Assembly: GCA_964643135.1 (NCBI GenBank)
Contig: CAZXPC010000004.1
Span: 4,716 to 68,715 of the forward strand
Origin: an uncultured Candidatus Saccharibacteria bacterium
GTDB lineage: Bacteria > Patescibacteriota > Minisyncoccia > UBA6257 > Colwellbacteraceae
Reading direction: 5' to 3'
DNA length: 64,000 bases
Of the stretch, positions 762 to 10,077 are shown piece after piece; position 1 is the stretch's first letter; each line of letters begins with the position of its first letter. The translations under genes and the position numbers were made by a program. The notes below the pieces were generated by a model. That model made no database searches, was not told the DNA's origin, and was given only the letters and a program-made list of their open reading frames with translations.

Positions 762-2180
762 CTAGATCGACTTGATCGAGACATAGAACTGGCTGCCTTT
801 GCCTTCTCCAGCGCTTTCTGCCCAGACTTTTCCGCCGTGGTCTTCGATGATCTTCTTGGCGATGAAGAGGCCTAAGCCGGTGCCAAGTATCTTTTTGCCG
901 GTTTCGCCTTTGTCGCGGCTAAATTGCTGGAAAAGTTTCGGCAAAAGCTCGTCTGATATTCCTAGCCCGGAGTCAGTTACTGCAATCAGGATGTTGCCCG
1001 GAGTTTTAGCATCGTTATTAATCGTAACTTTAACCCATCCGGCGGGAGTGTATTTAATTGAGTTATCCACGAAGTTTAGAATAGTCTGCTTAAACTTCTG
1101 CGCATCAGCTTTGATCTTAGCGCTTTGAATCCGGACATCTAGTGATAGGTCGAGGCCTTTTTTAACGGCCAAACCATGCAGCTCGTCGACAATTTCTTTA
1201 GTCATCTTAATCAAATCAACATCTTCAAAAGTATAATTCATCTTCCCCTCTTCGGCTTTGCGCATGTCGAGCAGGTTATTAACCAAGTCAATCAGCCTGT
1301 TAGCTGAATTGATTATTTTCTCGGTCATTTCTTTAACTTTGTCCGGTATAGCACCCAACTGCCCGTCGCGGATAATTTCGGCGTAGCCTTTTACAACCGC
1401 CATCGGCGCTTTAACCTGGTGCGAGGCGAAAGAGAGGAATTCTGATTTCAATTTATCCAATTCTTTAAGTTTCTCATTGGCGACTTTGAGCTCCTGATAC
1501 AAGAAAGCCCGGTCGAGCGCCACGGCGACCACGTTTACAAAGCTCTCGATGGATTCTTTCTCAAATTTGCTCAAGGTCTCATACTCATGGTTCAGCGCCA
1601 TAATCAATACGCCAATTGTTTTCTTCTCGATCACGAGCGGGTAAATTATCGACGTTTTGATGTTCGCATCTGCCGAGACTTTCTTTAAAGTTTCTGTTGT
1701 AAAAACGTCTTGCCAAATCGGGGCCAGGCCGTTTACGACGCACATCGAGCGGTTCAGCATCACCGTTTCCAAGATCGGGTTCGGCAAAGGCCTCTGGATT
1801 TTCATCGCGTGGAAAGGAATGTCGGTTATCGCCTTTCTGGCCTCAGCCAGGCGTTCCGACCGCGCGAATTTGAGAGGCTTCAGCTCGTCGGTCGCCTCGT
1901 CAAAGGTGAGGATGCCGACCAGCTCGTAATTCAAATCATCGCGGATAGCCTGCGTAATATTGGTCGCGATCTGCTCGGGCTCAAAGTTCTGAATGCTGAA
2001 TTGGTAAAGTTTACGCAAAAGGGAGAGCGTTTTGTTGCGGTTCGCCAGCTCGGCATTCTGGCCATATAAAAGCTGGGCCACATCTTTCAGGTGCTTCTGC
2101 TCCTCGCTCATCGATTCCGCAGGTGGCGCAGCGGGCTGTTCTGTTTTCTCCAGTTTCTTTTTGCGACCCCAAATAGCCAT
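762..2180 (-). CDS. Sensor histidine kinase with GAF domain
   Basis: 472 aa; HisKA H-box (FLSFASHQVKAPMAVVKGYAEI) and HATPase_c G-boxes (GTGLGLFIAKKIIEDHGGKVW); central GAF-like region. Confidence 0.8.
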   Translation of the reverse strand: MAIWGRKKKLEKTEQPAAPPAESMSEEQKHLKDVAQLLYGQNAELANRNKTLSLLRKLYQFSIQNFEPEQIATNITQAIRDDLNYELVGILTFDEATDELKPLKFARSERLAEARKAITDIPFHAMKIQRPLPNPILETVMLNRSMCVVNGLAPIWQDVFTTETLKKVSADANIKTSIIYPLVIEKKTIGVLIMALNHEYETLSKFEKESIESFVNVVAVALDRAFLYQELKVANEKLKELDKLKSEFLSFASHQVKAPMAVVKGYAEIIRDGQLGAIPDKVKEMTEKIINSANRLIDLVNNLLDMRKAEEGKMNYTFEDVDLIKMTKEIVDELHGLAVKKGLDLSLDVRIQSAKIKADAQKFKQTILNFVDNSIKYTPAGWVKVTINNDAKTPGNILIAVTDSGLGISDELLPKLFQQFSRDKGETGKKILGTGLGLFIAKKIIEDHGGKVWAESAGEGKGSQFYVSIKSI

Positions 2181-2313
2181 GAGTTAATTATGGACTAATT
2201 GTAGCATGGGTTATATAATCAAATCACTTTCGGGATTATCCCGCGGCCCCGCTAGAAATAGCGGGGAATTCTCTTTATTTTTCCTTCATCTGCGAAGTTG
2301 TAGCATTGAAGTT

Positions 2314-2706
2314 ATGACTCATATAAAAGATTTTGATGGATGGAATGAGAATAAAAAGGAAATTCACAATCGCGTTGATGGGCCATTTTTCCATACTCGT
2401 GAAATATGGTGGTGCTCACTTGGTCTAAATATAGGCTTTGAGCAGGATGGATCAAGCGATGACTATTATCGCCCCGTACTCATATTGAAAGGCTTGGGAA
2501 GATGGACCTGTCTAGCTGTTCCACTGACTACTTCTGCAAGAGATCATAAGTTGCGCCCCTCCATCGGTGTTGTCGAAGGCAAGGAGGATCGTGCTCTTAT
2601 CTCGCAAATCAGAGTTATAGATGCGAAGCGTTTAGTAAGGAAAGTAGGCTATCTTGAAAGCAATATCTTTGAAATCATAAGAAAAACCGTCAAGGATATG
2701 ATCTGA
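2314..2706 (+). CDS. MazF/PemK-family endoribonuclease toxin with N-terminal extension
   Basis: REIWWCSLGLNIGFEQDG...RPVLILKG...QIRVIDAKRL aligns with B. subtilis EndoA/YdcE (GDVYFADLSPVVGSEQGG..RPVLVIQ..QIRTIDKQRL). Start taken at the internal Met at 2314; the ORF track extends to 2206 with no stop. Confidence 0.6.
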   Translation: MTHIKDFDGWNENKKEIHNRVDGPFFHTREIWWCSLGLNIGFEQDGSSDDYYRPVLILKGLGRWTCLAVPLTTSARDHKLRPSIGVVEGKEDRALISQIRVIDAKRLVRKVGYLESNIFEIIRKTVKDMI

Positions 2707-2718
2707 CGGTTTTTCTCG
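2684..2718 (+). terminator. Rho-independent terminator overlapping the MazF-like stop
   Basis: 11-bp perfect stem aaaaaccgtca/tgacggttttt with an 11-nt loop, followed by T-run. Confidence 0.65.
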
Positions 2719-2809
2719 ACTTACTTGATGTTTGCCTCTTGCGAGGCGAGGCCGAAGCCACTTGTACTTATATCTTATCACGACAAGATACTTAGTCAAA
2801 TGCTAATTG

Positions 2810-3091
2810 TTATCTCAGGCTTGCCGGCACTTCGGCGGCGGGCAGGTCGGCGATGAGGCTGATCGCGGCTTCGCGGCAGACTTCGTGGCTAGCGCGGCCG
2901 AACAACCGCTCATATTGAGCGACAAGCTTATCCAAAGTTTCTTTCGGGTCGCCGGCAATATCAACTTCCCCACTCTTTTGATCAGTGATCTTTAAGCCCT
3001 GCACTTTCCCCGCCTCATTCCAAGCTAAGGGGCCGATAACCAGCTCCTGCTCTTTAATGATTTTTGATGCAATTTGCGCGAAGATAGTCAT
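2810..3091 (-). CDS. Hypothetical small protein (93 aa)
   Basis: ORF with a coding-like amino-acid composition, immediately upstream of and co-directional with the 3095-3949 membrane protein gene; no recognisable motif. Confidence 0.4.
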   Translation of the reverse strand: MTIFAQIASKIIKEQELVIGPLAWNEAGKVQGLKITDQKSGEVDIAGDPKETLDKLVAQYERLFGRASHEVCREAAISLIADLPAAEVPASLR

Positions 3092-3094
3092 GGG

Positions 3095-3949
3095 CTAAGT
3101 ATTTGGATTTTTTTCTTCGGGCTGTCGTGGATCAAGCAAGACAATGCCCATGCTTAGCAAAGTCATTGTCATGGTAAACAACACATCGGCTAAGCTTCCG
3201 TTGTAGTAAGTTGTGAGCGTAGTGGTATATGAGAAAGTAAAATCAGCAAAATAGTTTGCTATGAAACCTGCCAAGACAATGTAAATAGCAGTCCTGTATA
3301 AACCTCCAAAATATTTAAACGACAAGCCGTAAATCAAAATTGATAAACTAAGAATCACTACATCGCCGATTGGATATGCGAGATCGAAGAATAATTTCAG
3401 CTGGTTCATAAACGGAGAAAGGGTGCTATCCGGCATAGTCAGAACTCCTCCCCTAGCCACAACGACGAGCAAATAATAAGATATCGCGATAATAACTGCA
3501 GGAATAACAAAAAGTAATATCTTGCCTTCCATTTTCCTAAGCTCAAACTTGGCGCCAGTCGCTCTAGATAGATTTATAATTCCTATCGCCCATAGGGGCC
3601 AGCTGATTACGAACGACGCATCAGCCCATGAAGGATACGGGACACTCACGCCTAAAATAATGTTGTAGTACAGCCAAATAACCATCCCGAAGCCCCAAGT
3701 TATCAGACCCAGAGATAGAAATGAGACTGCCCTGCCCACCGCGCTACTAAAACCGCCCCAACGCCTAGCCAATAGAAAACCGTAAATGCCTCCAATTAGT
3801 GGGATAATGCCGTACGTATTGCTATAAATGTTAGCCGGTCCGCCTGAGGTAGTTTGAGTAATGTAAAGATATAAAAACCAGCCCATATAAAAAACGAAAA
3901 GCGTCGCTAAGACAGTTAGGAATTTCTTTTGGATGCCTTTTGTGGACAT
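3095..3949 (-). CDS. Polytopic membrane protein, unknown function
   Basis: 284 aa with about 8 hydrophobic helices; no catalytic motif recognised. Confidence 0.5.
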   Translation of the reverse strand: MSTKGIQKKFLTVLATLFVFYMGWFLYLYITQTTSGGPANIYSNTYGIIPLIGGIYGFLLARRWGGFSSAVGRAVSFLSLGLITWGFGMVIWLYYNIILGVSVPYPSWADASFVISWPLWAIGIINLSRATGAKFELRKMEGKILLFVIPAVIIAISYYLLVVVARGGVLTMPDSTLSPFMNQLKLFFDLAYPIGDVVILSLSILIYGLSFKYFGGLYRTAIYIVLAGFIANYFADFTFSYTTTLTTYYNGSLADVLFTMTMTLLSMGIVLLDPRQPEEKNPNT

Positions 3950-3998
3950 ATTTATTGTCAGGTATATACTGAAAACAACTTAAATATTATACAAAAAT

Positions 3999-4385
3999 AT
4001 GGATAAAGACACAAAGCAGAAGTTTGGTTACAAAGGCGGTTACGGTTTGGAGTTAATATTAGATCTAAAGGGCTGTGATCTTTCAGACTTAACCCGCGAA
4101 AAGTTGAAGAGATTTTTTGTGGAATTATGCGATCGGATCAAGATGGTAAGGCATGGCGAACCTCTGTATTGGGAGGATACTTCCGATATTCCTCATCTCC
4201 GAGGCATTTCCGGATTTCAATTTATCGAAACAAGCAATGTTGTATGCCATCCAATCTCCATGCAAAATGCGGTATATCTCAACATATTCTCGTGTAAGGA
4301 ATTTGATACTGAAGATGCAGTAAAATACTGCGTCGAATTCTGGGGAGCAAAATCCGAGGTTCACACTGTTGTACCTCGCACATAA
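3999..4385 (+). CDS. S-adenosylmethionine decarboxylase-fold (SpeH-like, pyruvoyl-dependent) protein, possibly divergent
   Basis: GLELILDLKGCD and GISGFQFIETSNVVCHP...NIFSCK align with SpeH GRHLVAEFYECD and [20 protein letters not shown]...DLFTCG, including the E-S/T|S processing site; the H..WPE motif is altered. Confidence 0.55.
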   Translation: MDKDTKQKFGYKGGYGLELILDLKGCDLSDLTREKLKRFFVELCDRIKMVRHGEPLYWEDTSDIPHLRGISGFQFIETSNVVCHPISMQNAVYLNIFSCKEFDTEDAVKYCVEFWGAKSEVHTVVPRT

Positions 4386-4390
4386 AAACC

Positions 4391-4927
4391 ATGTCTTCTG
4401 ATAAGCAGGCGGCAAAGGAAACTATTCTGGAAACAGATAGTTTAGCGGTAACCTCTAGTAAATCGAAAGATCGCGGCTTAGGTGTTTTTGCAAAACATAG
4501 TTTCCGAGCTGGAGAGTTATTATTTGAAGTTAGAGGCCCAATAATGGCAAGAGGAACTAAATATTCATTATCTGTTGGCTTTGGCCAACACATTGAACCA
4601 AAAACAGAAGACGGCAAAGATGATTTCGGACATTACATGAACCACTCTTGTGATCCGAATGCATTTGTAAAAGTCGTAGCCTCATCTAAAACTCCCTACA
4701 TAGAGATCAGAGCGCGCAGGAATATCAAAAAGGGTGAAGAGTTAACATTTGATTACGCCTCATCAGAATATGAGGTAACAATAAATGGAGTTTCTTGCAG
4801 ATGCGACACAAAGCTGTGTAGGGGTAAAATTCATGGATTCAAAGATCTACCTAAAGATATTTTCGATCAGTATAAAAAAGAGGGAATAATTCCCGACCAC
4901 CTAACAAGTATTTCCAGTAATAATTAA
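4391..4927 (+). CDS. SET-domain protein (putative SAM-dependent lysine methyltransferase)
   Basis: NHSCDPN motif, ELTFDY motif and post-SET cysteine cluster CRCDTKLCRG; 5-bp gap to the upstream SpeH-like gene. Confidence 0.8.
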   Translation: MSSDKQAAKETILETDSLAVTSSKSKDRGLGVFAKHSFRAGELLFEVRGPIMARGTKYSLSVGFGQHIEPKTEDGKDDFGHYMNHSCDPNAFVKVVASSKTPYIEIRARRNIKKGEELTFDYASSEYEVTINGVSCRCDTKLCRGKIHGFKDLPKDIFDQYKKEGIIPDHLTSISSNN

Positions 4928-4947: not shown

Positions 4948-5283
4948 TTATTTGCCTGGAGTAAAAACCATTAAAAAAATACCGATTAGAGCAAAGACTA
5001 TGCCAAGGTATTCCAAGCCGGTCATTTTGTCCCATTCATTAAACATAAACAAACCAACGGCTATCGTGCTCACGGTAAGAAGAGAATCCGCGATTCCCGA
5101 TCCAATCGCAACACCGACCTTGGAAGTGAGTAGCCCATAAGTTATGAACACAAAGGGAGAGACGAGGATGAGGGCGACAAGCCAAATAGAATAGCGGCTA
5201 TCCTGCCTAGCCCAAATCGCACCTATTGAGTTGGCCAGAAGAGCTACTCCAACAGCCATGACTATATAAAGAATATTTTTCAT
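4948..5283 (-). CDS. Small 4-TM membrane protein (SMR/DMT-like)
   Basis: 111 aa, four hydrophobic helices; size and topology of small multidrug-resistance-like proteins. Confidence 0.45.
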   Translation of the reverse strand: MKNILYIVMAVGVALLANSIGAIWARQDSRYSIWLVALILVSPFVFITYGLLTSKVGVAIGSGIADSLLTVSTIAVGLFMFNEWDKMTGLEYLGIVFALIGIFLMVFTPGK

Positions 5284-5413: not shown

Positions 5414-6544
5414 TCACTCACCGAGGATCAGGGCGACGAGATCCGGGAAGACCTCGGTGAAGTCGCCGAAGATCTGGAAGTATGGGTCACCCGGCTCCAA
5501 CTTGTCCCAGGTGATCTTCTCCTTGCCTCCGGCTCCGGAGTAGGAACCCCCGCTCATGGGCGTGAGGTGGACCTCGACAAACCCAGCCCAGGCAGGCACG
5601 AGGGCTTCCTGGGTCTCCTGCGTCTCTTCCGCAAGGTAGTCCTTCTTCACATGCGGCACGCCGCAGATGACGAAGTCCGCCGCAATTCCGCCTCCGAGCT
5701 GGAGGAAGAAGATCCTCTTCTGCCTCGCTTCCTTCATGTAGAGCTCCGTGAAGCGGTGCATGTAGGCGTCAGGGGGCTGGATCACGGCGGGGTTGATGGG
5801 CTTCTCCTGCTTGTACTTCGCAAGGAACTCGTCGTTCCCGTTGTAGCAGTAGTAGCTGAAGATGTTCCCCATTGTGCTGTCTTCCCGGCCAGGGACGAAG
5901 ACCTGCACGCCGTGGATCATCGCCTGGTAGGCCCAACAGTCGTCGAGGTTCGCCGTGGGATCGAACGCGATCATCCCTCGGCGGACCGTCTCTTCGAAGT
6001 ACCAGTTCCAGAGATGGCTCTCGCCCTGCGCTTCGGCTTCGCGCCAGAGGCACTCCATCGGGCCGAGCATGACGCGGGTCGACTCGTCCTCCGGCATGGT
6101 CGTCGTAGTGATCCGCCGGTGGCCAGTCCGTCCGAGTTCCTTCTCCTGTGCGGGAGTGAGCTCCGGATACCTCGGGAGATAGGTGTAGTACGAGTGCGCG
6201 ATGGCTCGGTACCAGCTCTCCTCGTAGTTCGCGCCCGTACACGAGATCGCTGCGACCTTGCCCGCGCGGATCAGTCTCGAGAGCGCGATCCCGCCTTCGA
6301 ACGATGAGAAGGCGCCGGCTAGGGTGACAACGAATTTGCCGCCCTCTTCGCCGTGCCTCTTCATCGTCAGGCCGGCATCGACCATGGCGCCGCCGTTGCA
6401 GTGGCGCTTGTTCTTCACAAGATGGTTCGAAACGGGCGAGTTCGGGTTCGGCGTGTAGTCCCGGTCCACAGGCATGAAGAACGCCTGCAATTCGGGACTC
6501 AGCTGTGCCTTCTTCTCTTCGGGGCTGAGTATTTTTTGCGACAT
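5414..6544 (-). CDS. Deoxyhypusine synthase-like protein (DHS / homospermidine synthase family)
   Basis: Alignable along its length with human DHS: [40 protein letters not shown] vs [63 protein letters not shown] vs [33 protein letters not shown] vs IILGGGVVKHH. The gene is about 60% GC against a background of about 46%. Confidence 0.8.
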   Translation of the reverse strand: [376 protein letters not shown]

Positions 6545-6746: not shown

Positions 6747-7304
6747 ATGACCAAGACTGGAAAAGTAGTTTATCGTGGCATGGCGGCGGGCAAGCCGATT
6801 GTTATTCGCTATCCTAAAATGAGCGATGCGAAGGCGGCATTGGAATTTATCAATAAAATCTCTCGGGAAAAGAGCTTCCTTAACATACAAGGCAAGCAGT
6901 TGAACATGAAGGAAGAGCGAGCCTTCCTAAAAAAGAATATCTCTGGCATTAAGAAAAAAGTCTGCGTTCATCTCTTCGTCTTGGCTGGGGATCGAATTGT
7001 CGGTTCGGCAACTATGAATCGCGAGAGTATAGATGCTCAAAAACATAAAGCTGAGTTCGGTATAGTTATGGCCAAGGATATGAGAGGCTACGGGATCGGC
7101 AGACTTTTGATGTCGCTCGTTCTGAAAGAATCAGAGCGTAGTATGCAGGGCGTAAAAATGTTCACTCTGAAAGTTTTTGCTAATAACCCTCTCGCATTTA
7201 GAATGTACAGAAAGTTCGGCTTCAAACAGTTCGGCATCTTGCCCAAAGGAGTAACACACAAAGGCAAGCCCGTTGACGAAATATTCATGTATAAAGACCT
7301 ATAG
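6747..7304 (+). CDS. GNAT family N-acetyltransferase
   Basis: 185 aa; acetyl-CoA binding motif region RGYGIGRLLMSLVL and C-terminal FGF..G pattern. Confidence 0.7.
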   Translation: MTKTGKVVYRGMAAGKPIVIRYPKMSDAKAALEFINKISREKSFLNIQGKQLNMKEERAFLKKNISGIKKKVCVHLFVLAGDRIVGSATMNRESIDAQKHKAEFGIVMAKDMRGYGIGRLLMSLVLKESERSMQGVKMFTLKVFANNPLAFRMYRKFGFKQFGILPKGVTHKGKPVDEIFMYKDL

Positions 7305-7326
7305 AAAACAGGTTAACTTTTTAGAT

Positions 7327-7800
7327 ATGACGATAAAAATTAGAAAAGCTAAACGGGCGGATATTGATGCGATTGTTAAGCTTAATTCGGGGCTGACTGA
7401 CTATCACCACAAGATCGATCCGGACTATTGGAGCCCGAGCAGTAAAACGCGCGGACCTTTTAGGAAATTTATTAGCGGACAAATTGGGAAAAGAAACTCA
7501 CTAAGTCTGGTTGCGGAAGATGATGGCAAGGCTGTGGGATACTTTACGGGCAACATATTGGTACCTAAACCAGCAGTAAAGATTAGAAAGATCGGCCACC
7601 TGGGACATGGATTCTTACTGCCGGAGTATCGTAGCCAAGGTATCGCGAGAAAAGCCGGAGAAATGCTGGTTGAATGGTTTAAGAAAAAGGGCATCCGATT
7701 ACTAGAGCTTTCGGTTGACTCTAGGAATAATGTCGGCGTTCGAGCCTGGGAGGGATTGGGTTTTAAAGAGTTTATGAAAAAAATGAAATTGGAGATATAA
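7327..7800 (+). CDS. GNAT family N-acetyltransferase
   Basis: Internal Met start MTIKIRKAKRADIDAIVKLN; HGFLLPEYRSQGIARKAGEMLVEW motif A; GLGF C-terminal motif. Confidence 0.7.
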   Translation: MTIKIRKAKRADIDAIVKLNSGLTDYHHKIDPDYWSPSSKTRGPFRKFISGQIGKRNSLSLVAEDDGKAVGYFTGNILVPKPAVKIRKIGHLGHGFLLPEYRSQGIARKAGEMLVEWFKKKGIRLLELSVDSRNNVGVRAWEGLGFKEFMKKMKLEI

Positions 7801-7804
7801 AAAT

Positions 7805-7963
7805 ATGAAATCAAAATCAATTATTAAAAAGGTTGTTAAAGATAAAAATCAGGATCGCAGGATTTTTGATGCTTCGAGAGATAATAGAGGAGCTGGTGTA
7901 AGAACTCAGGATCTGATCAAAACTATTAAGAAAATCGAGGGAGACTTAACAAAGGATTTATGA
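7805..7963 (+). CDS. Possible small Lys-rich protein (52 aa)
   Basis: Short ORF (MKSKSIIKKVVKDKNQDRRIFDASRDNRGAGVRTQDLIKTIKKIEGDLTKDL) whose stop overlaps the ATG of the next gene (ATGA); below the 60-aa cut-off of the ORF track. Confidence 0.25.
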   Translation: MKSKSIIKKVVKDKNQDRRIFDASRDNRGAGVRTQDLIKTIKKIEGDLTKDL

Positions 7964-8517
7964 TTTACTATGTCACGGGAAGCGATATTAAATTTAAAAC
8001 CGCACAGGATTGTCTAAAAGAGCATGGCATTGATATTGTTCAGAAAACGCTGGATATTAAAGAAATCCAGAGCGAGTCGATCGAAGAGATAGCAATCGAT
8101 AAGGCTAAACGAGCTTTTGAGACAATCAAAGAACCCCTGTTCATTAATGATTCCGGCTGGTTTTTCGCAGGACTCAATGGCTTTCCCGGCGCCTATATGG
8201 CCTATATTAATAGATGGCTTACGGCTGACGATTTGATAAATCTCATGAAAGGAAAAGATAACCGGGAGGTAATTCTAAAACAAGTTGTCGTCTATATCGA
8301 TGAAAAAGGACATAAAATTTTAGAACATGATTCTATCGGCAAGATTTTAGAAAAACCAAGCATTAATATCGGACGACCGTCAGAAATGGTTTCGTCCTTC
8401 TCGGGTGATGATCTGGCCTTAACAGACCAAAGGGCTAAAGGAATTAAAAATATCGGGCCAGAGCAGGAACTCTGGAGTGAATTGGCAGATTGGCTAAGAG
8501 AAACTAAGAGACCCTAA
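7960..8517 (+). CDS. Ham1/ITPase-family non-canonical purine NTP pyrophosphatase paralog 1 (N-to-S variant in the TGN motif)
   Basis: YYVTGSDIKFKTA, LDIKEIQSESIEEIA and FINDSGWFFAGLNGFPGAYMAYI match ITPA motifs FVTGNAKK, IDLPEYQGEPDEIS and ALGGLPGPYIKWF. Confidence 0.7.
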   Translation: MIYYVTGSDIKFKTAQDCLKEHGIDIVQKTLDIKEIQSESIEEIAIDKAKRAFETIKEPLFINDSGWFFAGLNGFPGAYMAYINRWLTADDLINLMKGKDNREVILKQVVVYIDEKGHKILEHDSIGKILEKPSINIGRPSEMVSSFSGDDLALTDQRAKGIKNIGPEQELWSELADWLRETKRP

Positions 8518-8917
8518 CGCCTAAATCTTCGTAGAACCTCAAAAGATATCCATCGGGATCTTGGACAATGAATTGTCGGTTGCCGACCAATGAGTTGTCT
8601 TTGCGATACCACTTTTCATCGATGGGCAAGAAAACTTTGATGTTGTGCTTGCTAATTGTCGCGTAAAGGGCGTCGATCCTCTCAGTTTCGATCTGGAAAT
8701 TAACTCCCCGGCCGAAAGGTAGTTCGAGCTTACCGGTTTGCCACGCACTTTCCGAGGAGAGCTCTTCTAACATGATTTCGGCGTTGCCTTTTTTAATATA
8801 CGCGAACTGATCCTCAGGCCTCTGGTAGACAATAGTAAAGCCTAGTAACTCATAAAAATTGAGGCTTTGCTTGATATCAGAACAAAATAACTCCGGCACC
8901 AACCCGATCGGTTTCAT
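8504..8917 (-). CDS. VOC family protein (glyoxalase/bleomycin-resistance/dioxygenase superfamily)
   Basis: 137 aa; paired beta-alpha-beta-beta-beta module signature (LNFYELLGF..., ...DPDGYLLRFYE). Confidence 0.65.
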   Translation of the reverse strand: MKPIGLVPELFCSDIKQSLNFYELLGFTIVYQRPEDQFAYIKKGNAEIMLEELSSESAWQTGKLELPFGRGVNFQIETERIDALYATISKHNIKVFLPIDEKWYRKDNSLVGNRQFIVQDPDGYLLRFYEDLGVRVS

Positions 8918-8955
8918 GGCCTAAGAATACCATATTAAGATATAATGAATCGATC

Positions 8956-9522
8956 ATGAAAATATCTCAATTGACATATGTCACGGGGAATAATTTCAAA
9001 TTCGAAGTGGCGAAAAAGGCTTTTGCTGGCTCGGGTATTGAGATAACTCAAACCAAGATGGACTTGCCGGAAATACAAAGCGAGAGCGTGGAGGAAATAG
9101 CAGGTCACTCGGCCAAGATCGCAGCGCAAAAGTTGGGCATGCCGGTTTTGGTTGGTGACGTTGGCTATTCTGTTGAAGCGCTTAGTGGTTTTCCGGGACC
9201 GTTTATAAAATATATGAATAAATGGCTAACTGTGCAGGACTGGCTAAATTTAATGCAGGGAAAGGAAAATAGAAGCATGATAATTAAAGAAGCCCTCGCC
9301 TACTGCGAACCGAATTCTGAACCCACAGTTTTTACCGGATCTTTTAACGGACTGGTAGCGCTAAAAGCTGGTCCGCCGGGCAAAAACCCGGTCAACCAAG
9401 TTTGGATACCCGAGGGCTACAATAAAGTTGAAACTGAAATACCTGAAGGAGAGTTGGTTCAGGGCTGGATAAAAACTTCCGGCCATTGGGAGAAGTTAAT
9501 AAAATATTTGAAAACGAAATAA
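8956..9522 (+). CDS. Ham1/ITPase-family non-canonical purine NTP pyrophosphatase paralog 2
   Basis: LTYVTGNNFKFEVA, KMDLPEIQSESVEEIA and VLVGDVGYSVEALSGFPGPFIKYM closely match ITPA consensus motifs. Confidence 0.8.
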   Translation: MKISQLTYVTGNNFKFEVAKKAFAGSGIEITQTKMDLPEIQSESVEEIAGHSAKIAAQKLGMPVLVGDVGYSVEALSGFPGPFIKYMNKWLTVQDWLNLMQGKENRSMIIKEALAYCEPNSEPTVFTGSFNGLVALKAGPPGKNPVNQVWIPEGYNKVETEIPEGELVQGWIKTSGHWEKLIKYLKTK

Positions 9523-9525
9523 AGG

Positions 9526-10077
9526 TTATCTAGGGTTTTTATAGATCCTGTATTCGATAATTTTCCTGACTACTCCCCTAGAGTTAGCCTTGTCATATTC
9601 CTCATAAACTTTGGCCCCCATTGATTCTGGGATTTTTCGGCTCGCAATATTCTCAGGCATAACTGGATAGCGAAGATAATCATAATTTATGTTGGTATCC
9701 GCCCAATCTTTTAAGGCCGCCATCGTTTCCCGACCATATTTTTTACCGTGGGCTGATTTCTTGATCCAGATGCCGAGCTCCGGAGTTGGGGTATCAACAT
9801 CGTGCAACCCTCCGCAACCGATAAACTCACCCGTTTGTTTATCAGTGATAACTATTTGTAGGTCTTTGCCAGCCGCTAAATCTCTGAGGGAATTATTTAT
9901 AAAGTTATCAGTAACAGATATATCCCCTGAAGGCTGAGGGAACATGTGGGTTGCGATTTCCTCTGTAAATTCACGGAAAATATCCTCGCGATAGATCGGG
10001 GAAATCGGAGCCAAGAGCAAATTAGCGGTTTCGATCCTGGAATCTAATAAGTTGAGTTTTTCTTTCGGGGTTTCCAT
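9526..10077 (-). CDS. GNAT family N-acetyltransferase (RimJ/RimL-like)
   Basis: 183 aa; GNAT motif A region around GCGGLHDV...GIWIKKSAHGKKYGRETMAAL. Confidence 0.65.
   Translation of the reverse strand: METPKEKLNLLDSRIETANLLLAPISPIYREDIFREFTEEIATHMFPQPSGDISVTDNFINNSLRDLAAGKDLQIVITDKQTGEFIGCGGLHDVDTPTPELGIWIKKSAHGKKYGRETMAALKDWADTNINYDYLRYPVMPENIASRKIPESMGAKVYEEYDKANSRGVVRKIIEYRIYKNPR

Follow-up and report, generated by a model that had tools for sequence, protein, structure and literature searches.

A putative pyruvoyl-dependent decarboxylase and a SET-domain methyltransferase that recur as neighbours in uncultured bacteria

Prokaryotic SET proteins are usually assumed to be involved in histone mimicry or host manipulation. 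To our knowledge, only BurB has been demonstrated to take a free metabolite as its substrate, and we know of no SET enzyme that methylates a free polyamine. BurB and MSMT are SET methionine S-methyltransferases of the bacterial DMSP methylation pathway, in which BurI and SMMDC serve as the S-methylmethionine decarboxylases (PMC12542666, PMC7496086); SET enzyme and decarboxylase there work on a single small cationic amino acid, as the present pair may also do. The gene pair described here resembles that system in having a small SET enzyme (172-180 aa, with a post-SET segment and a tail) encoded with a decarboxylase; its SET protein, ORF2, has 178 aa against the 172 of BurB, and shares with it the motifs DYASxE and I.G.K.LP. 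It differs in that the partner there is PLP-dependent (of the DAP-decarboxylase type), whereas here it is a putative pyruvoyl enzyme of the AdoMetDC fold; R133 and H138 of BurB are replaced here, many loci have the decarboxylase but no SET gene, and the module contains neither an aminotransferase nor an aldehyde dehydrogenase.

For the decarboxylase, ORF1, the closest described proteins are those termed SpeDC, homologues of AdoMetDC (SpeD) that have been neofunctionalised to pyruvoyl-dependent L-ornithine decarboxylases (ODCs) (Li, Liang, Phillips and Michael, J Biol Chem 2023, PMC10407285) and of which there are also phage examples (PMC9992855). PMC10407285 assigns catalytic roles to the processing Ser, a His and a Cys, and gives Gln, Thr, Phe and Tyr in the central region as the diagnostic residues of SpeDC.

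The decarboxylase gene

In the 64-kb stretch of DNA analysed here (the window), ORF1 lies at positions 3999-4385 of the + strand and encodes 128 amino acids, in which neither a hydrophobic nor a signal segment was found. It matches the Pfam family AdoMet_dc (PF02675) at 4.5e-13 (49.9 bits, cut-off 25), with residues 19-127 spanning positions 2-106 of the 107 in the profile. Searches of PDB sequences with ORF1, both as a single sequence and as a 28-sequence profile, gave nothing at E <= 1, and the evidence for the fold comes from a predicted structure. Ranked against the PDB, the AF2 model (pLDDT 90.3) has as its top five matches chains of class 1b AdoMetDC (T. maritima 1vr7/1tlu/1tmi and A. 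aeolicus 2iii), at TM 0.72-0.82 and rmsd 1.8-2.2 Å. The central motif reads ...QFIE-T78-S79-NVVC-H84-PISM...FS-C99-K, so that the Ser, the His (+5) and the Cys (+20) are spaced as are S63/H68/C83 of T. maritima, with PISM where TWPE stands in AdoMetDC. T78, S79, H84, C99, Q74 and Y93 are invariant among 28 ORF1 homologues, and ORF1 is probably a proenzyme with a predicted cleavage at T78|S79 and H84 and C99 as catalytic residues. A sequence-only reading of this DNA had already proposed the AdoMetDC fold, the E-T|S processing site and an altered H..WPE motif for this protein; the Pfam match and the model both bear out the first of these, and the motif the other two.

The same reading had called ORF1 SpeH-like and the pair two SAM-related enzymes, an assignment with which the details disagree. 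ORF1 has neither the [E/D]-S-H cleavage motif nor the H-T-W-P-E loop, carrying E-T-S-N and H-P-I-S-M instead, and it reaches only 21.2 bits against the NCBIfam AdoMetDC equivalog TIGR03330, for which the cut-off is 75.65. Even the sole known AdoMetDC within the SpeDC clade, a phage homologue, keeps D-S-H where ORF1 has T-S-N. Judged from its sequence, ORF1 is not a SpeH/AdoMetDC. Its motifs fit the SpeDC signature in the diagnostic Q74, T78 and Y93; if the diagnostic Phe is the residue after the His, as the HF of the validated domains would suggest, ORF1 has Pro there. Local alignments to two validated ODC domains scored 114 and 141 (32-42% identity) and those to AdoMetDCs 41-44, with approximate sequences for T. 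maritima and, read by OCR from Fig. S5, for the ODC domains. The IETS motif of ORF1 is identical to that of the D. phosphitoxidans ODC domain, whose activity is lost in the S229A mutant (PMC10407285). A search of a phage collection yielded just 10 weak matches with no validated ODC among them; the phiM12 AdoMetDC sequence from that collection served as a contrast to ORF1. The likeness to SpeDC extends from the class 1b fold and the Ser/His/Cys set, with Thr before the Ser, Gln five residues upstream of it and Tyr nine after the His, to the size (about 120-130 aa) and to abundance in CPR bacteria. ORF1 thus most probably belongs to the SpeDC clade, as a protein of ODC type descended from AdoMetDC and with L-ornithine as its predicted substrate.

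Within that clade ORF1 represents a subtype, QFIETSNVVCH[PA]LP, in which CH[PA]LP follows the cleavage site; the validated domains with which it was compared belong to another subtype, with GHF[AS][NE] at that point. We know of no assayed member of the CH[PA]LP subtype, and clade membership leaves the substrate unfixed, as the AdoMetDC of phage phiN3 illustrates. The SpeDC-type superfamily comprises some 1,800 cluster representatives, and its subtypes differ in their genomic partners, these being SET or NNMT-like genes, DUF3326, and speE or a second SpeD. The neighbours of the ORF1 subtype are SET, NNMT-like and EamA-like genes and a kinase triad, rather than the speE, casdh/casdc and hss genes found with SpeDC: among the 25 commonest Pfam families of 130 neighbours of the subtype, there were no speE, casdh, casdc, hss, DS or agmatinase genes. 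A classical polyamine operon was considered and rejected on the absence of polyamine genes from those families.

The SET gene and its pairing with the decarboxylase

ORF2, at 4391-4927 of the + strand, encodes a 178-aa protein that consists of a SET domain, a putative post-SET zinc cluster and a C-terminal tail of bacterial type (IHGFKDLP...), and in which neither a hydrophobic segment nor a signal peptide was found. It matches Pfam SET (PF00856) at 2.1e-18 (67.1 bits, cut-off 22.4) and contains NHSCDPN (84-90), ELTFDY (117-122) and the post-SET cysteines C136/C138/C143. Across 52 sequences N84, H85, C87, P89, E117, C136, C138 and C143 do not vary, and Y122 hardly does. The AF2 model (pLDDT 92.6) has the pseudoknot fold of SET domains; at E <= 0.001 there are 342 PDB matches to it, the best 50 of which are all SET-domain methyltransferases. 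By its motifs and model, ORF2 is a complete SET/post-SET methyltransferase, in which C87, C136, C138 and C143 are predicted to form the zinc cluster; the earlier description of a SET domain with NHSCDPN and a post-SET Cys cluster is in full agreement with this.

In structure, the model matches the SET domain of MLL1 at TM 0.56-0.70 and BurB at TM 0.57-0.69. By sequence profile the best match is to MLL1-type enzymes (3.5e-29, vs 7e-21 for BurB), and GxG, NHSCxPN, ELxFDY and the post-SET CxCx4C of MLL1/SET1/SET2 are all present in ORF2; for the post-SET segment, however, BurB is the best PDB match. (A query with the whole tail was swamped by spurious matches to designer-PPR repeats; the BurB alignment succeeded with a shorter query.) Unlike MLL1, ORF2 and its family have a SET-I insert, the part that forms the peptide groove, that is shorter by about 14 residues; ORF2 is also without accessory domains or complex partners, has the extra C-terminal tail, and has a metabolic enzyme as its genomic partner.

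The two genes are separated by five bases (AAACC) and lie on the same strand, as the operon arrangement proposed earlier had it, and neither a promoter-like site nor a terminator was found between them. A promoter-like sequence, TGGACA-16-TATACT, occurs on the + strand at 3943..3970, in the 49-bp divergent intergenic region 5' of ORF1; with 10/12 matches, and with sites in the region no more numerous than expected from shuffling, it is compatible with a bicistronic ORF1-ORF2 transcript. No Rfam family scored above threshold anywhere in the window, so there is no riboswitch clue to a ligand.

The pairing is real and recurrent in many uncultured bacteria. Of the 37 non-redundant related loci, 19 have a SET gene (45-60% identity) immediately 3' of the decarboxylase, and in nine protein clusters the two domains are joined in a single polypeptide. 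These fusions are found on both archaeal and bacterial contigs (one is labelled Nitrosopumilales archaeon) with both motif sets intact; their neighbourhoods revealed no additional conserved partner. Since two loci (L011, L014) and the fusions retain the pair and lack the TM284-p93-kinase triad described below, the constant partner of SET is the decarboxylase and not the triad. The decarboxylase family has a distribution at least twice as wide as that of SET, and at 18 of 39 loci it has no methyltransferase nearby. One locus (L125) has a SET orthologue without any decarboxylase, and one other orthologue (L123/L124) adjoins a degraded one. No description of the decarboxylase-SET association was found in the searchable literature. 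The sequence-only reading had suspected a functional link, to be doubted if profile searches put ORF1 outside the AdoMetDC fold or if the pair were never syntenic elsewhere; the profile and the model place ORF1 within that fold, and the synteny in many genomes and the fusion in some support the link.

One could argue that the genes are neighbours simply because the genomes are compact, and that the enzymes are functionally unrelated, given that CPR genomes are gene-dense, that about half of the related loci have no SET gene and that one SET orthologue stands alone. This is very unlikely: the adjacency is kept down to 45% SET identity and in differing flanks (with or without the triad, or with LPG_synthase_C/EamA), the fusion lineage has conserved both active sites at 55-65% identity, and the association as a whole goes beyond chance.

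Another possibility is that ORF2 is a protein lysine methyltransferase, acting on the decarboxylase itself (its processing, activity or assembly) or on some other cellular protein, in which case linkage and fusion would reflect an enzyme-regulator pair. The closeness of its profile to histone methyltransferases, together with a full set of catalytic elements and an intact post-SET cluster, fits such a role, as does the tightness of the linkage, and the decarboxylase has conserved lysines at K24 and K100, the latter adjoining the catalytic Cys. These are equally kept in SET-less orthologues, however, no lysine being specific to SET-partnered decarboxylases. The missing SET-I residues, the persistence of SET orthologues beside a degraded decarboxylase or none at all, and the small-molecule methyltransferase families and DMT transporters of the same neighbourhood also speak against it. 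Modification of protein lysines, which the earlier reading had put forward, is rather unlikely and not the best-supported explanation.

Neighbouring genes

Small pyruvoyl decarboxylases are known to be paired with transporters, as in HdcA/HdcP (histidine) and in the chlamydial AaxB/AaxC (arginine:agmatine exchange). The aaxABC genes are mentioned in PMC2720952. Something similar may exist here. TM111 (4948..5283, - strand), convergent with SET, encodes a small EamA/DMT-like protein of 111 aa with four hydrophobic segments; it has a weak match (0.0059) to TMEM234, which we take to be a DMT-type membrane family, and its orthologues match EamA at 1e-05 in L007 and weakly in L003. A link to the decarboxylase is seen at 17 of the 39 non-redundant loci, and at those without SET the gene lies only 3-17 bp away. 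Its product is a candidate for the transport of the substrate or product of the decarboxylase-SET pair. The resemblance to the Hdc and Aax pairs lies in the small putative pyruvoyl decarboxylase beside a membrane transporter, with the EamA-like gene adjoining at SET-less loci; the decarboxylase fold is a different one, the transporter here is of the four-helix DMT type, and one or two methyltransferases are present in addition.

Divergent from ORF1 is a conserved triad of genes on the - strand. The first, TM284 (3095..3949), encodes a polytopic membrane protein (284 aa, at least five hydrophobic segments) without a Pfam or NCBIfam match; at 19 of the 39 non-redundant loci it adjoins the decarboxylase, and is then 46-60% identical. 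The second, p93 (2810..3091), encodes a soluble protein of 93 aa with no significant Pfam match, whose orthologues (48-71% identical) always occupy the same position between TM284 and the kinase. The third (762..2180) is a histidine kinase of GAF-HisKA-HATPase_c architecture by Pfam and a candidate regulator of the module; a kinase accompanies the decarboxylase at 16 of the 39 type-c loci, and one does so at the Peribacteria locus L032 as well.

At several related loci a second kind of methyltransferase is found. Genes of the NNMT/PNMT/TEMT type (PF01234) adjoin the decarboxylase in L007, L024, L045 and L055 and lie near it in L032 and L043, occurring together with SET in L043 and L045; none was found in the window. 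All of their solved relatives are small-molecule enzymes (NNMT structures match at 4e-32), and L123 has a gene of the PEMT family. Though NNMT, PNMT and INMT have a class I Rossmann fold unrelated to SET, the place beside the decarboxylase in the first four of these loci suggests the same logical role for both.

A divergent homologue of deoxyhypusine synthase (DHS; 5414-6544, - strand; Pfam DS 1.6e-17) lies upstream of TM111, with 486 bp between it and the end of SET. It scores 30 bits against its equivalog, far from the cut-off of 304. The sequence-only reading had combined it with a SpeH-type AdoMetDC and the SET protein into an unusual polyamine or protein-lysine modification pathway, which would be hypusine-like, and had suggested that SET could be a host-targeted effector. 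In favour of such ideas, the three genes fall within 2.6 kb, the DHS homologue retains the Lys of its W-x-K motif, and the relatives are Patescibacteria, many of them episymbionts (PMC11665869). The homologue is indeed where it was said to be, but it does not belong to the conserved module: its GC content of 60-65% stands out from flanks of about 40%, and it accompanies the decarboxylase in only 1 of 39 non-redundant loci, that of the window itself, and is absent from some 120 related loci. As a GC-rich island found only in this genome, it is a foreign insertion. No spermidine synthase, the partner that an AdoMetDC requires, was detected by tblastn in the 64-kb window, and ORF1, being of ODC type and far below the equivalog cut-off, does not fit an AdoMetDC role. 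As for an effector, the SET protein carries no signal for secretion, it occurs fused with a metabolic enzyme on archaeal and bacterial contigs, and small-molecule methyltransferases can take or share its place. Synteny and composition together largely refute this reading, to which we give almost no credence; the folds, operon, T|S site and gene link it had described stand, and the SpeH identity, DHS context and host effector are not supported.

Possible reactions of the pair

The explanation that fits best, which we hold tentatively as quite possible rather than established, is that ORF1 makes a primary amine, probably putrescine, and that SET N-methylates it. The ORF1 proenzyme would cut itself at T78|S79, with S79 becoming an N-terminal pyruvoyl group (as the conserved Ser/His/Cys suggests), and would then decarboxylate a cationic amino acid, most probably L-ornithine to putrescine and not S-adenosylmethionine. 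ORF2 would use SAM to methylate the resulting amine to an N-methylated putrescine; in chemical terms, putrescine can be seen as the side chain of lysine carrying one more amino group. TM111 would carry the substrate or product across the membrane, and the divergently transcribed TM284-p93-histidine-kinase triad would sense or regulate. The decarboxylase catalytic core is the same in SET-plus and SET-minus loci, the differences being merely phylogeny-linked, so the substrate of ORF1 should not depend on SET. Together with the wider distribution of the decarboxylase, this suggests that the amine is formed first and methylated second. A small molecule is probably to be favoured over a protein as the target, given the NNMT/PNMT/TEMT and PEMT neighbours, the BurB precedent and the DMT-type transporters, and the module as a whole probably yields a methylated small amine rather than a modified histone or host protein. 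Counter to the best explanation are the lack of speE, CASDH/CASDC or hss beside this ORF1 subtype, the SET profile being closest to MLL1-type protein lysine methyltransferases, and the SET genes found with a degraded decarboxylase (L123/L124) or with none (L125). We know of no role for N-methylputrescine in these organisms.

The order of the steps could instead be reversed, with a BurB-like ORF2 making S-methylmethionine and ORF1 decarboxylating it to DMSP-amine (dimethylsulfoniopropylamine); the pair would then carry out the opening two reactions of the DMSP methylation pathway, using a new decarboxylase fold. ORF1 does descend from an enzyme that binds a sulfonium amino acid, SAM, and BurB matches ORF2 in size and architecture, at 27-29% identity in structural alignment, besides being the best post-SET match. 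In both characterised clusters (BurB-BurI, PMC12542666; MSMT-SMMDC, PMC7496086), the SET enzyme is paired with the decarboxylase of its product. The SMM decarboxylase of Spartina arose from an ODC by few substitutions (PMC11464771), so the two specificities are neighbours. PF01234, by its name, also includes thioether S-methyltransferase, and one fusion carries the Nitrosopumilales label. The record name of locus L061, Ga0115005_10056021, presumably denotes a marine sample, and was counted on the same side; those of most loci (Hain-, NC_groundwater) suggest groundwater, a point against the route. A SET-made substrate is nonetheless a poor fit to the 18 of 39 decarboxylase loci with no methyltransferase nearby and the same core. 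The SAM-contact residues R133 and H138 of BurB align with N132 and R137 of ORF2; the module has no aminotransferase, oxidase or aldehyde dehydrogenase; BurI and SMMDC are PLP enzymes of a different fold; and the two methyltransferases of L043 and L045 would be redundant. This route is accordingly considered unlikely.

The differing partners of the SpeDC-type subtypes imply that the single label "ornithine decarboxylase" may hide several activities. A SET enzyme locked to a small decarboxylase also provides a testable hypothesis for the whole SET subfamily, that of methylation of the decarboxylase substrate or product. If true, it would be the first SET-type polyamine N-methyltransferase or, alternatively, point to a new S-methylmethionine decarboxylase fold; should the sulfonium route be the correct one, CPR bacteria and some archaea would make DMSP-type or dcSAM-like sulfonium compounds. 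For the metabolically minimal CPR bacteria, the module would mean a methylated cationic metabolite provided with its own transporter and sensor kinase.

The predicted decarboxylase and its superfamily

The AdoMetDC-fold ORF and the SET ORF, placed 5 bp apart by the sequence-only reading, are confirmed by their coordinates and Pfam matches. ORF1 (3999-4385, +; 128 aa) matches AdoMet_dc at 4.5e-13 (49.9 bits), covering the profile almost end to end, and ORF2 (4391-4927, +; 178 aa) matches SET at 2.1e-18, with a spacer of five bases; searches for hydrophobic segments found none in either protein. A promoter-like site with 10 of 12 consensus matches -- which in this region are no more frequent than in shuffled sequence -- lies at 3943-3970, inside the 49-bp divergent spacer 5' of ORF1. 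A scan of the ORF1-ORF2 junction found no promoter-like and no terminator-like site, and the arrangement is compatible with a single transcript.

The best five PDB matches of an AlphaFold model of ORF1 (28 homologues as input; pLDDT 90.3) are class 1b AdoMetDCs, four chains from Thermotoga maritima and one from Aquifex aeolicus (TM 0.72-0.82, rmsd 1.8-2.2 A, identity 16-17%), bearing out the proposed fold; PDB sequence searches with ORF1 gave no match. S79, H84 and C99 are invariant in the family alignment and are spaced like S63, H68 and C83 of T. maritima, which are needed for self-processing and catalysis (PMC10407285). At the cleavage site, Thr stands where Glu is expected before Ser, and TWPE is missing; both are features given by Li et al. 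2023 (PMC10407285) for the SpeDC clade, made up of AdoMetDC homologues that no longer act as AdoMetDCs and instead decarboxylate L-ornithine, with diagnostic Gln, Thr, Phe and Tyr residues and 'at least 1,000' members, CPR bacteria included. In two fusion proteins the ornithine decarboxylase (ODC) domains have the pattern ...Q[LI]IETS...H...Y.D.FSC..., and ODC activity is abolished by S229A in the IETS of a fusion ODC domain (PMC10407285). The ORF1 string is QFIETSNVVCH...YLNIFSC. Alignment scores for ORF1 were 114 and 141 against these two domains (32-42% identity), whose sequences were obtained by OCR of a supplementary figure, versus 41-44 against AdoMetDC domains, the T. maritima sequence used agreeing with the paper's residue numbers.

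The one genuine AdoMetDC within the phage 'ODC clade', from a Sinorhizobium phage, retains D-S-H at the cleavage site, whereas T-S-N is invariant in the ORF1 family. The ORF1 subtype differs from the validated SpeDC ODC domains in the residues immediately after the catalytic His. By its motifs ORF1 is not a SpeH/AdoMetDC, and the earlier label 'SpeH-like' has to be dropped in view of the T-S-N, the missing TWPE and the far better alignment with ODC domains; it is most probably an ornithine-type amino-acid decarboxylase, as predicted from sequence.

Searching 1.84 billion cluster representatives with a profile gave 1,780 relatives at E <= 0.001, with Q-x-[IV]-x-T-S...H...FSC common to nearly all of the best 150 of them. 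Subtype (a), QLIETS..GHF.E, resembles the validated fusion domains; subtype (b) reads QFIxTSNI.IH[TA]LD; and subtype (c), to which ORF1 belongs, reads QFIETSNVVCH[PA]LP, shows 60-87% identity among Patescibacteria and extends to MAGs labelled delta-proteobacteria, Planctomycetota and Acidobacteria. Superfamily members occur fused to, among others, spermidine synthase, a second AdoMetDC domain, DUF3326 or SET. In one homologue (P0242, 260 aa) a CxxCxxCC zinc/iron-chelating domain is fused N-terminal to the decarboxylase, and the decarboxylase at L033:5357-6133, in a locus labelled Methanosarcinales, has a ~140-aa N-terminal extension.

Subtype (b) overwhelmingly adjoins DUF3326 or is fused to it (loci L059-L120, e.g. 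L064, L069, L071, L084 and L085; proteins P0317 and P0331). DUF3326 accounts for 41 of 137 neighbouring proteins in the metagenome loci of this subtype, and spermidine synthase or saccharopine-dehydrogenase-type proteins for only a handful. DUF3326 is PavB in the gene cluster that a 2026 preprint proposes for pavettamine, a hydroxylated polyamine, and decarboxylase-DUF3326 looks like a separate, widespread, uncharacterised module. The subtype (b) neighbours in L059-L120 also include AAA_21/AAA_15 ATPase domains (11/137), HNH (5/137) and a phage portal protein, which suggests that defence islands or mobile elements carry some of the copies. For subtype (c) and other genome loci, 130 neighbours were scanned and the 25 commonest families among them include no classical polyamine gene, and a search of the 64-kb window for spermidine synthase, DUF3326 and a second SpeD found none.

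Linkage of the decarboxylase and SET genes

Related loci were gathered through the decarboxylase (34 from species-representative genomes, 80 from metagenomes), with several more through SET, and scored with HMMs made from the window's genes; removal of near-identical loci left 40 of subtype (c). In 19 of the 37 with sufficient flank (16/34 once those fetched through SET are excluded), SET immediately follows the decarboxylase, usually after 2-38 bp. With 38 clusters (47-60% identity, E <= 1e-42), the SET orthologues are a distinct set, well apart from other bacterial SETs, the next match reaching only 1e-16. Among the independently fetched SET loci, the upstream decarboxylase is intact in L006 and L121/L122 and missing in L125; in L123 (5681-5908) and L124 (2179-2406), a degraded copy that has lost its N-terminal 40 residues and contains an internal stop lies 5' of an intact SET, the same sequence having come from two independent samples.

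In an archaeal MAG (L034), decarboxylase and SET form a single 276-aa ORF. Such fusions fall into nine clusters: one contains the L034 protein, and the other eight are 55-65% identical to it. Since they have a common linker and retain both catalytic motif sets, they represent a single ancient fusion that has been kept, in archaeal (RadA, Nre, RNA polymerase subunit) as well as bacterial (ComEC, RND efflux, FtsH) contexts. Of SET's neighbours, only the decarboxylase is constant. The pairing recurs across related loci; pure coincidence, a poorly supported explanation of the adjacency, is highly improbable. At another fusion locus, L061, a GNAT gene lies directly 3' of the fusion gene.

The deoxyhypusine-synthase (DHS) homologue (5414-6544, -; Pfam DS 1.6e-17), taken by the sequence-only reading for a pathway member, is excluded from the module by its sharp GC island (60-65% vs ~40% in flanking genes) and by its adjoining the decarboxylase in this genome only, among the related loci compared. 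It is very divergent (30 bits vs a 304-bit equivalog cut-off), with only the C-terminal ...SGAGGKEKITWDKL... aligning to archaeal DHS structures; a SpeY-like role is one candidate function. The gene was probably acquired horizontally, and recently, from a GC-rich donor, and is best seen as a foreign insertion upstream of TM111. The polyamine or protein-modification pathway, or host effector, originally suggested is poorly supported and extremely improbable.

Other neighbouring genes

TM111, a small EamA-like membrane protein (4948-5283; four hydrophobic segments; orthologues 111-113 aa), is linked to the decarboxylase in 17 of 39 loci. In SET-less loci its gene lies 3-17 bp from the decarboxylase, as if SET had been inserted into a decarboxylase-transporter core. 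A triad consisting of a 270-284-aa polytopic membrane protein (TM284 in the window), a 92-95-aa soluble protein (p93) and then a histidine kinase is linked in 16-19 of 39 loci, about half of subtype (c), divergent from or co-directional with the decarboxylase; it occupies 762-3949 (-) in the window and is also present in L003, L006-L010, L012, L015, L017, L019, L029, L041-L056 and L121. The membrane and soluble proteins have no significant Pfam match, nor TM284 an NCBIfam match; the triad may be a split sensor kinase responding to a signal connected with the module's metabolite. A PemK/MazF-like toxin gene (2206-2706, +; 2.9e-10) with a ~60-aa N-terminal extension is inserted between kinase and p93; it was seen there in no related locus, and no obvious antitoxin was identified.

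Methyltransferases of the NNMT/PNMT/TEMT family (PF01234) directly adjoin the decarboxylase in L007 (3905-4654, -), L024 (8352-9158, +), L045 and L055, and lie nearby in L032 (5577-6434, +) and L043. L007, the closest genomic relative (84% identical), has no SET; in L043 and L045 the PF01234 gene occurs together with SET. All solved relatives of these PF01234 enzymes are small-molecule N-methyltransferases (NNMT 4e-32, INMT, PNMT). Here a family best known from animals adjoins the decarboxylase in uncultured bacteria, CPR among them. In L123 a PEMT-family methyltransferase gene lies just 5' of the degraded decarboxylase. In L011 (6116-7940), L014 (6999-9838) and L016 (1-2450), LPG_synthase_C (aminoacyl-phosphatidylglycerol synthase-type) and full-length EamA genes flank the decarboxylase in place of the TM284 triad, a hint of some connection with lipid head groups or the cell envelope.

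The region 6747-10077, downstream of the module, holds a series of small 'housekeeping-repair' genes, namely three GNAT acetyltransferases, a glyoxalase-fold gene and a pair of Ham1p-like (ITPase) paralogues (7960-8517 and 8956-9522). An Rfam scan of window 1-64000 gave no family at gathering score, tRNA included.

The SET protein and a candidate pathway

In the ORF2 family the GxG, NHSCxPN, ELTFDY tyrosine and post-SET CxCx4C are all invariant. The ORF2 model (pLDDT 92.6) resembles MLL1-type histone methyltransferases (TM 0.56-0.70, identity 25-28%) and, about equally, BurB (TM 0.57-0.69, identity 27-29%), a bacterial SET enzyme that converts free methionine to S-methylmethionine. The sequence profile puts MLL1 (3.5e-29) ahead of BurB (7e-21), but ~14 residues of MLL1's SET-I insert are missing, and the best PDB match of the post-SET segment is BurB, with which it has in common DYASxE and an I.G.K.LP tail absent from MLL1. 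Fold and sequence therefore fit protein and small-molecule substrates alike. The conserved C-terminal tail KDIFDQYKKEGIIPDHLT (4853-4912, residues about 155-172) gave strong spurious PDB matches to designer pentatricopeptide-repeat proteins; as modelled, it is probably a PPR-like helical hairpin (helices 155-164 and 169-177).

Protein-lysine methylation, of the decarboxylase or another protein, would agree with the gene linkage and the MLL1-like profile but not with the companion small-molecule methyltransferases, and is rather unlikely. A small-molecule target is favoured by the second and third methyltransferase families that occupy the same position, by the transporters and by the precedent of BurB. 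SET is at most half as widespread as the decarboxylase, whose catalytic core is identical whether or not SET is present, no active-site column and no lysine separating the two groups; both points argue for decarboxylation first. Our tentative proposal, the best supported of the readings, is that ORF1 would self-cleave at T78|S79 to give a pyruvoyl enzyme and decarboxylate ornithine or a near analogue, yielding a primary amine, which ORF2 would then N-methylate; the small DMT-type protein would transport substrate or product, and the triad would regulate the module. The reverse order, in which SET makes S-methylmethionine for decarboxylation by the AdoMetDC-derived enzyme, has good grounds: both characterised clusters pair a BurB-type SET with a decarboxylase of its product (PMC12542666, PMC7496086), a plant S-methylmethionine decarboxylase evolved from an ODC (PMC11464771), and ORF1's ancestor bound a sulfonium amino acid. 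That order is nonetheless unlikely, given the many loci without any methyltransferase, the BurB SAM contacts not conserved in ORF2 and the absence of downstream enzymes.

A limited literature search, with many journals outside its coverage, found nothing linking a SET domain to a pyruvoyl/AdoMetDC-fold decarboxylase and nothing on SET proteins in CPR bacteria. The decarboxylase family was described in 2023 and SET domains are known; what seems new is the recruitment of this decarboxylase clade into a previously undescribed decarboxylase-methyltransferase(-transporter-sensor) module. This comes as a moderate surprise and is valuable mainly because two small soluble proteins are enough to test it directly.
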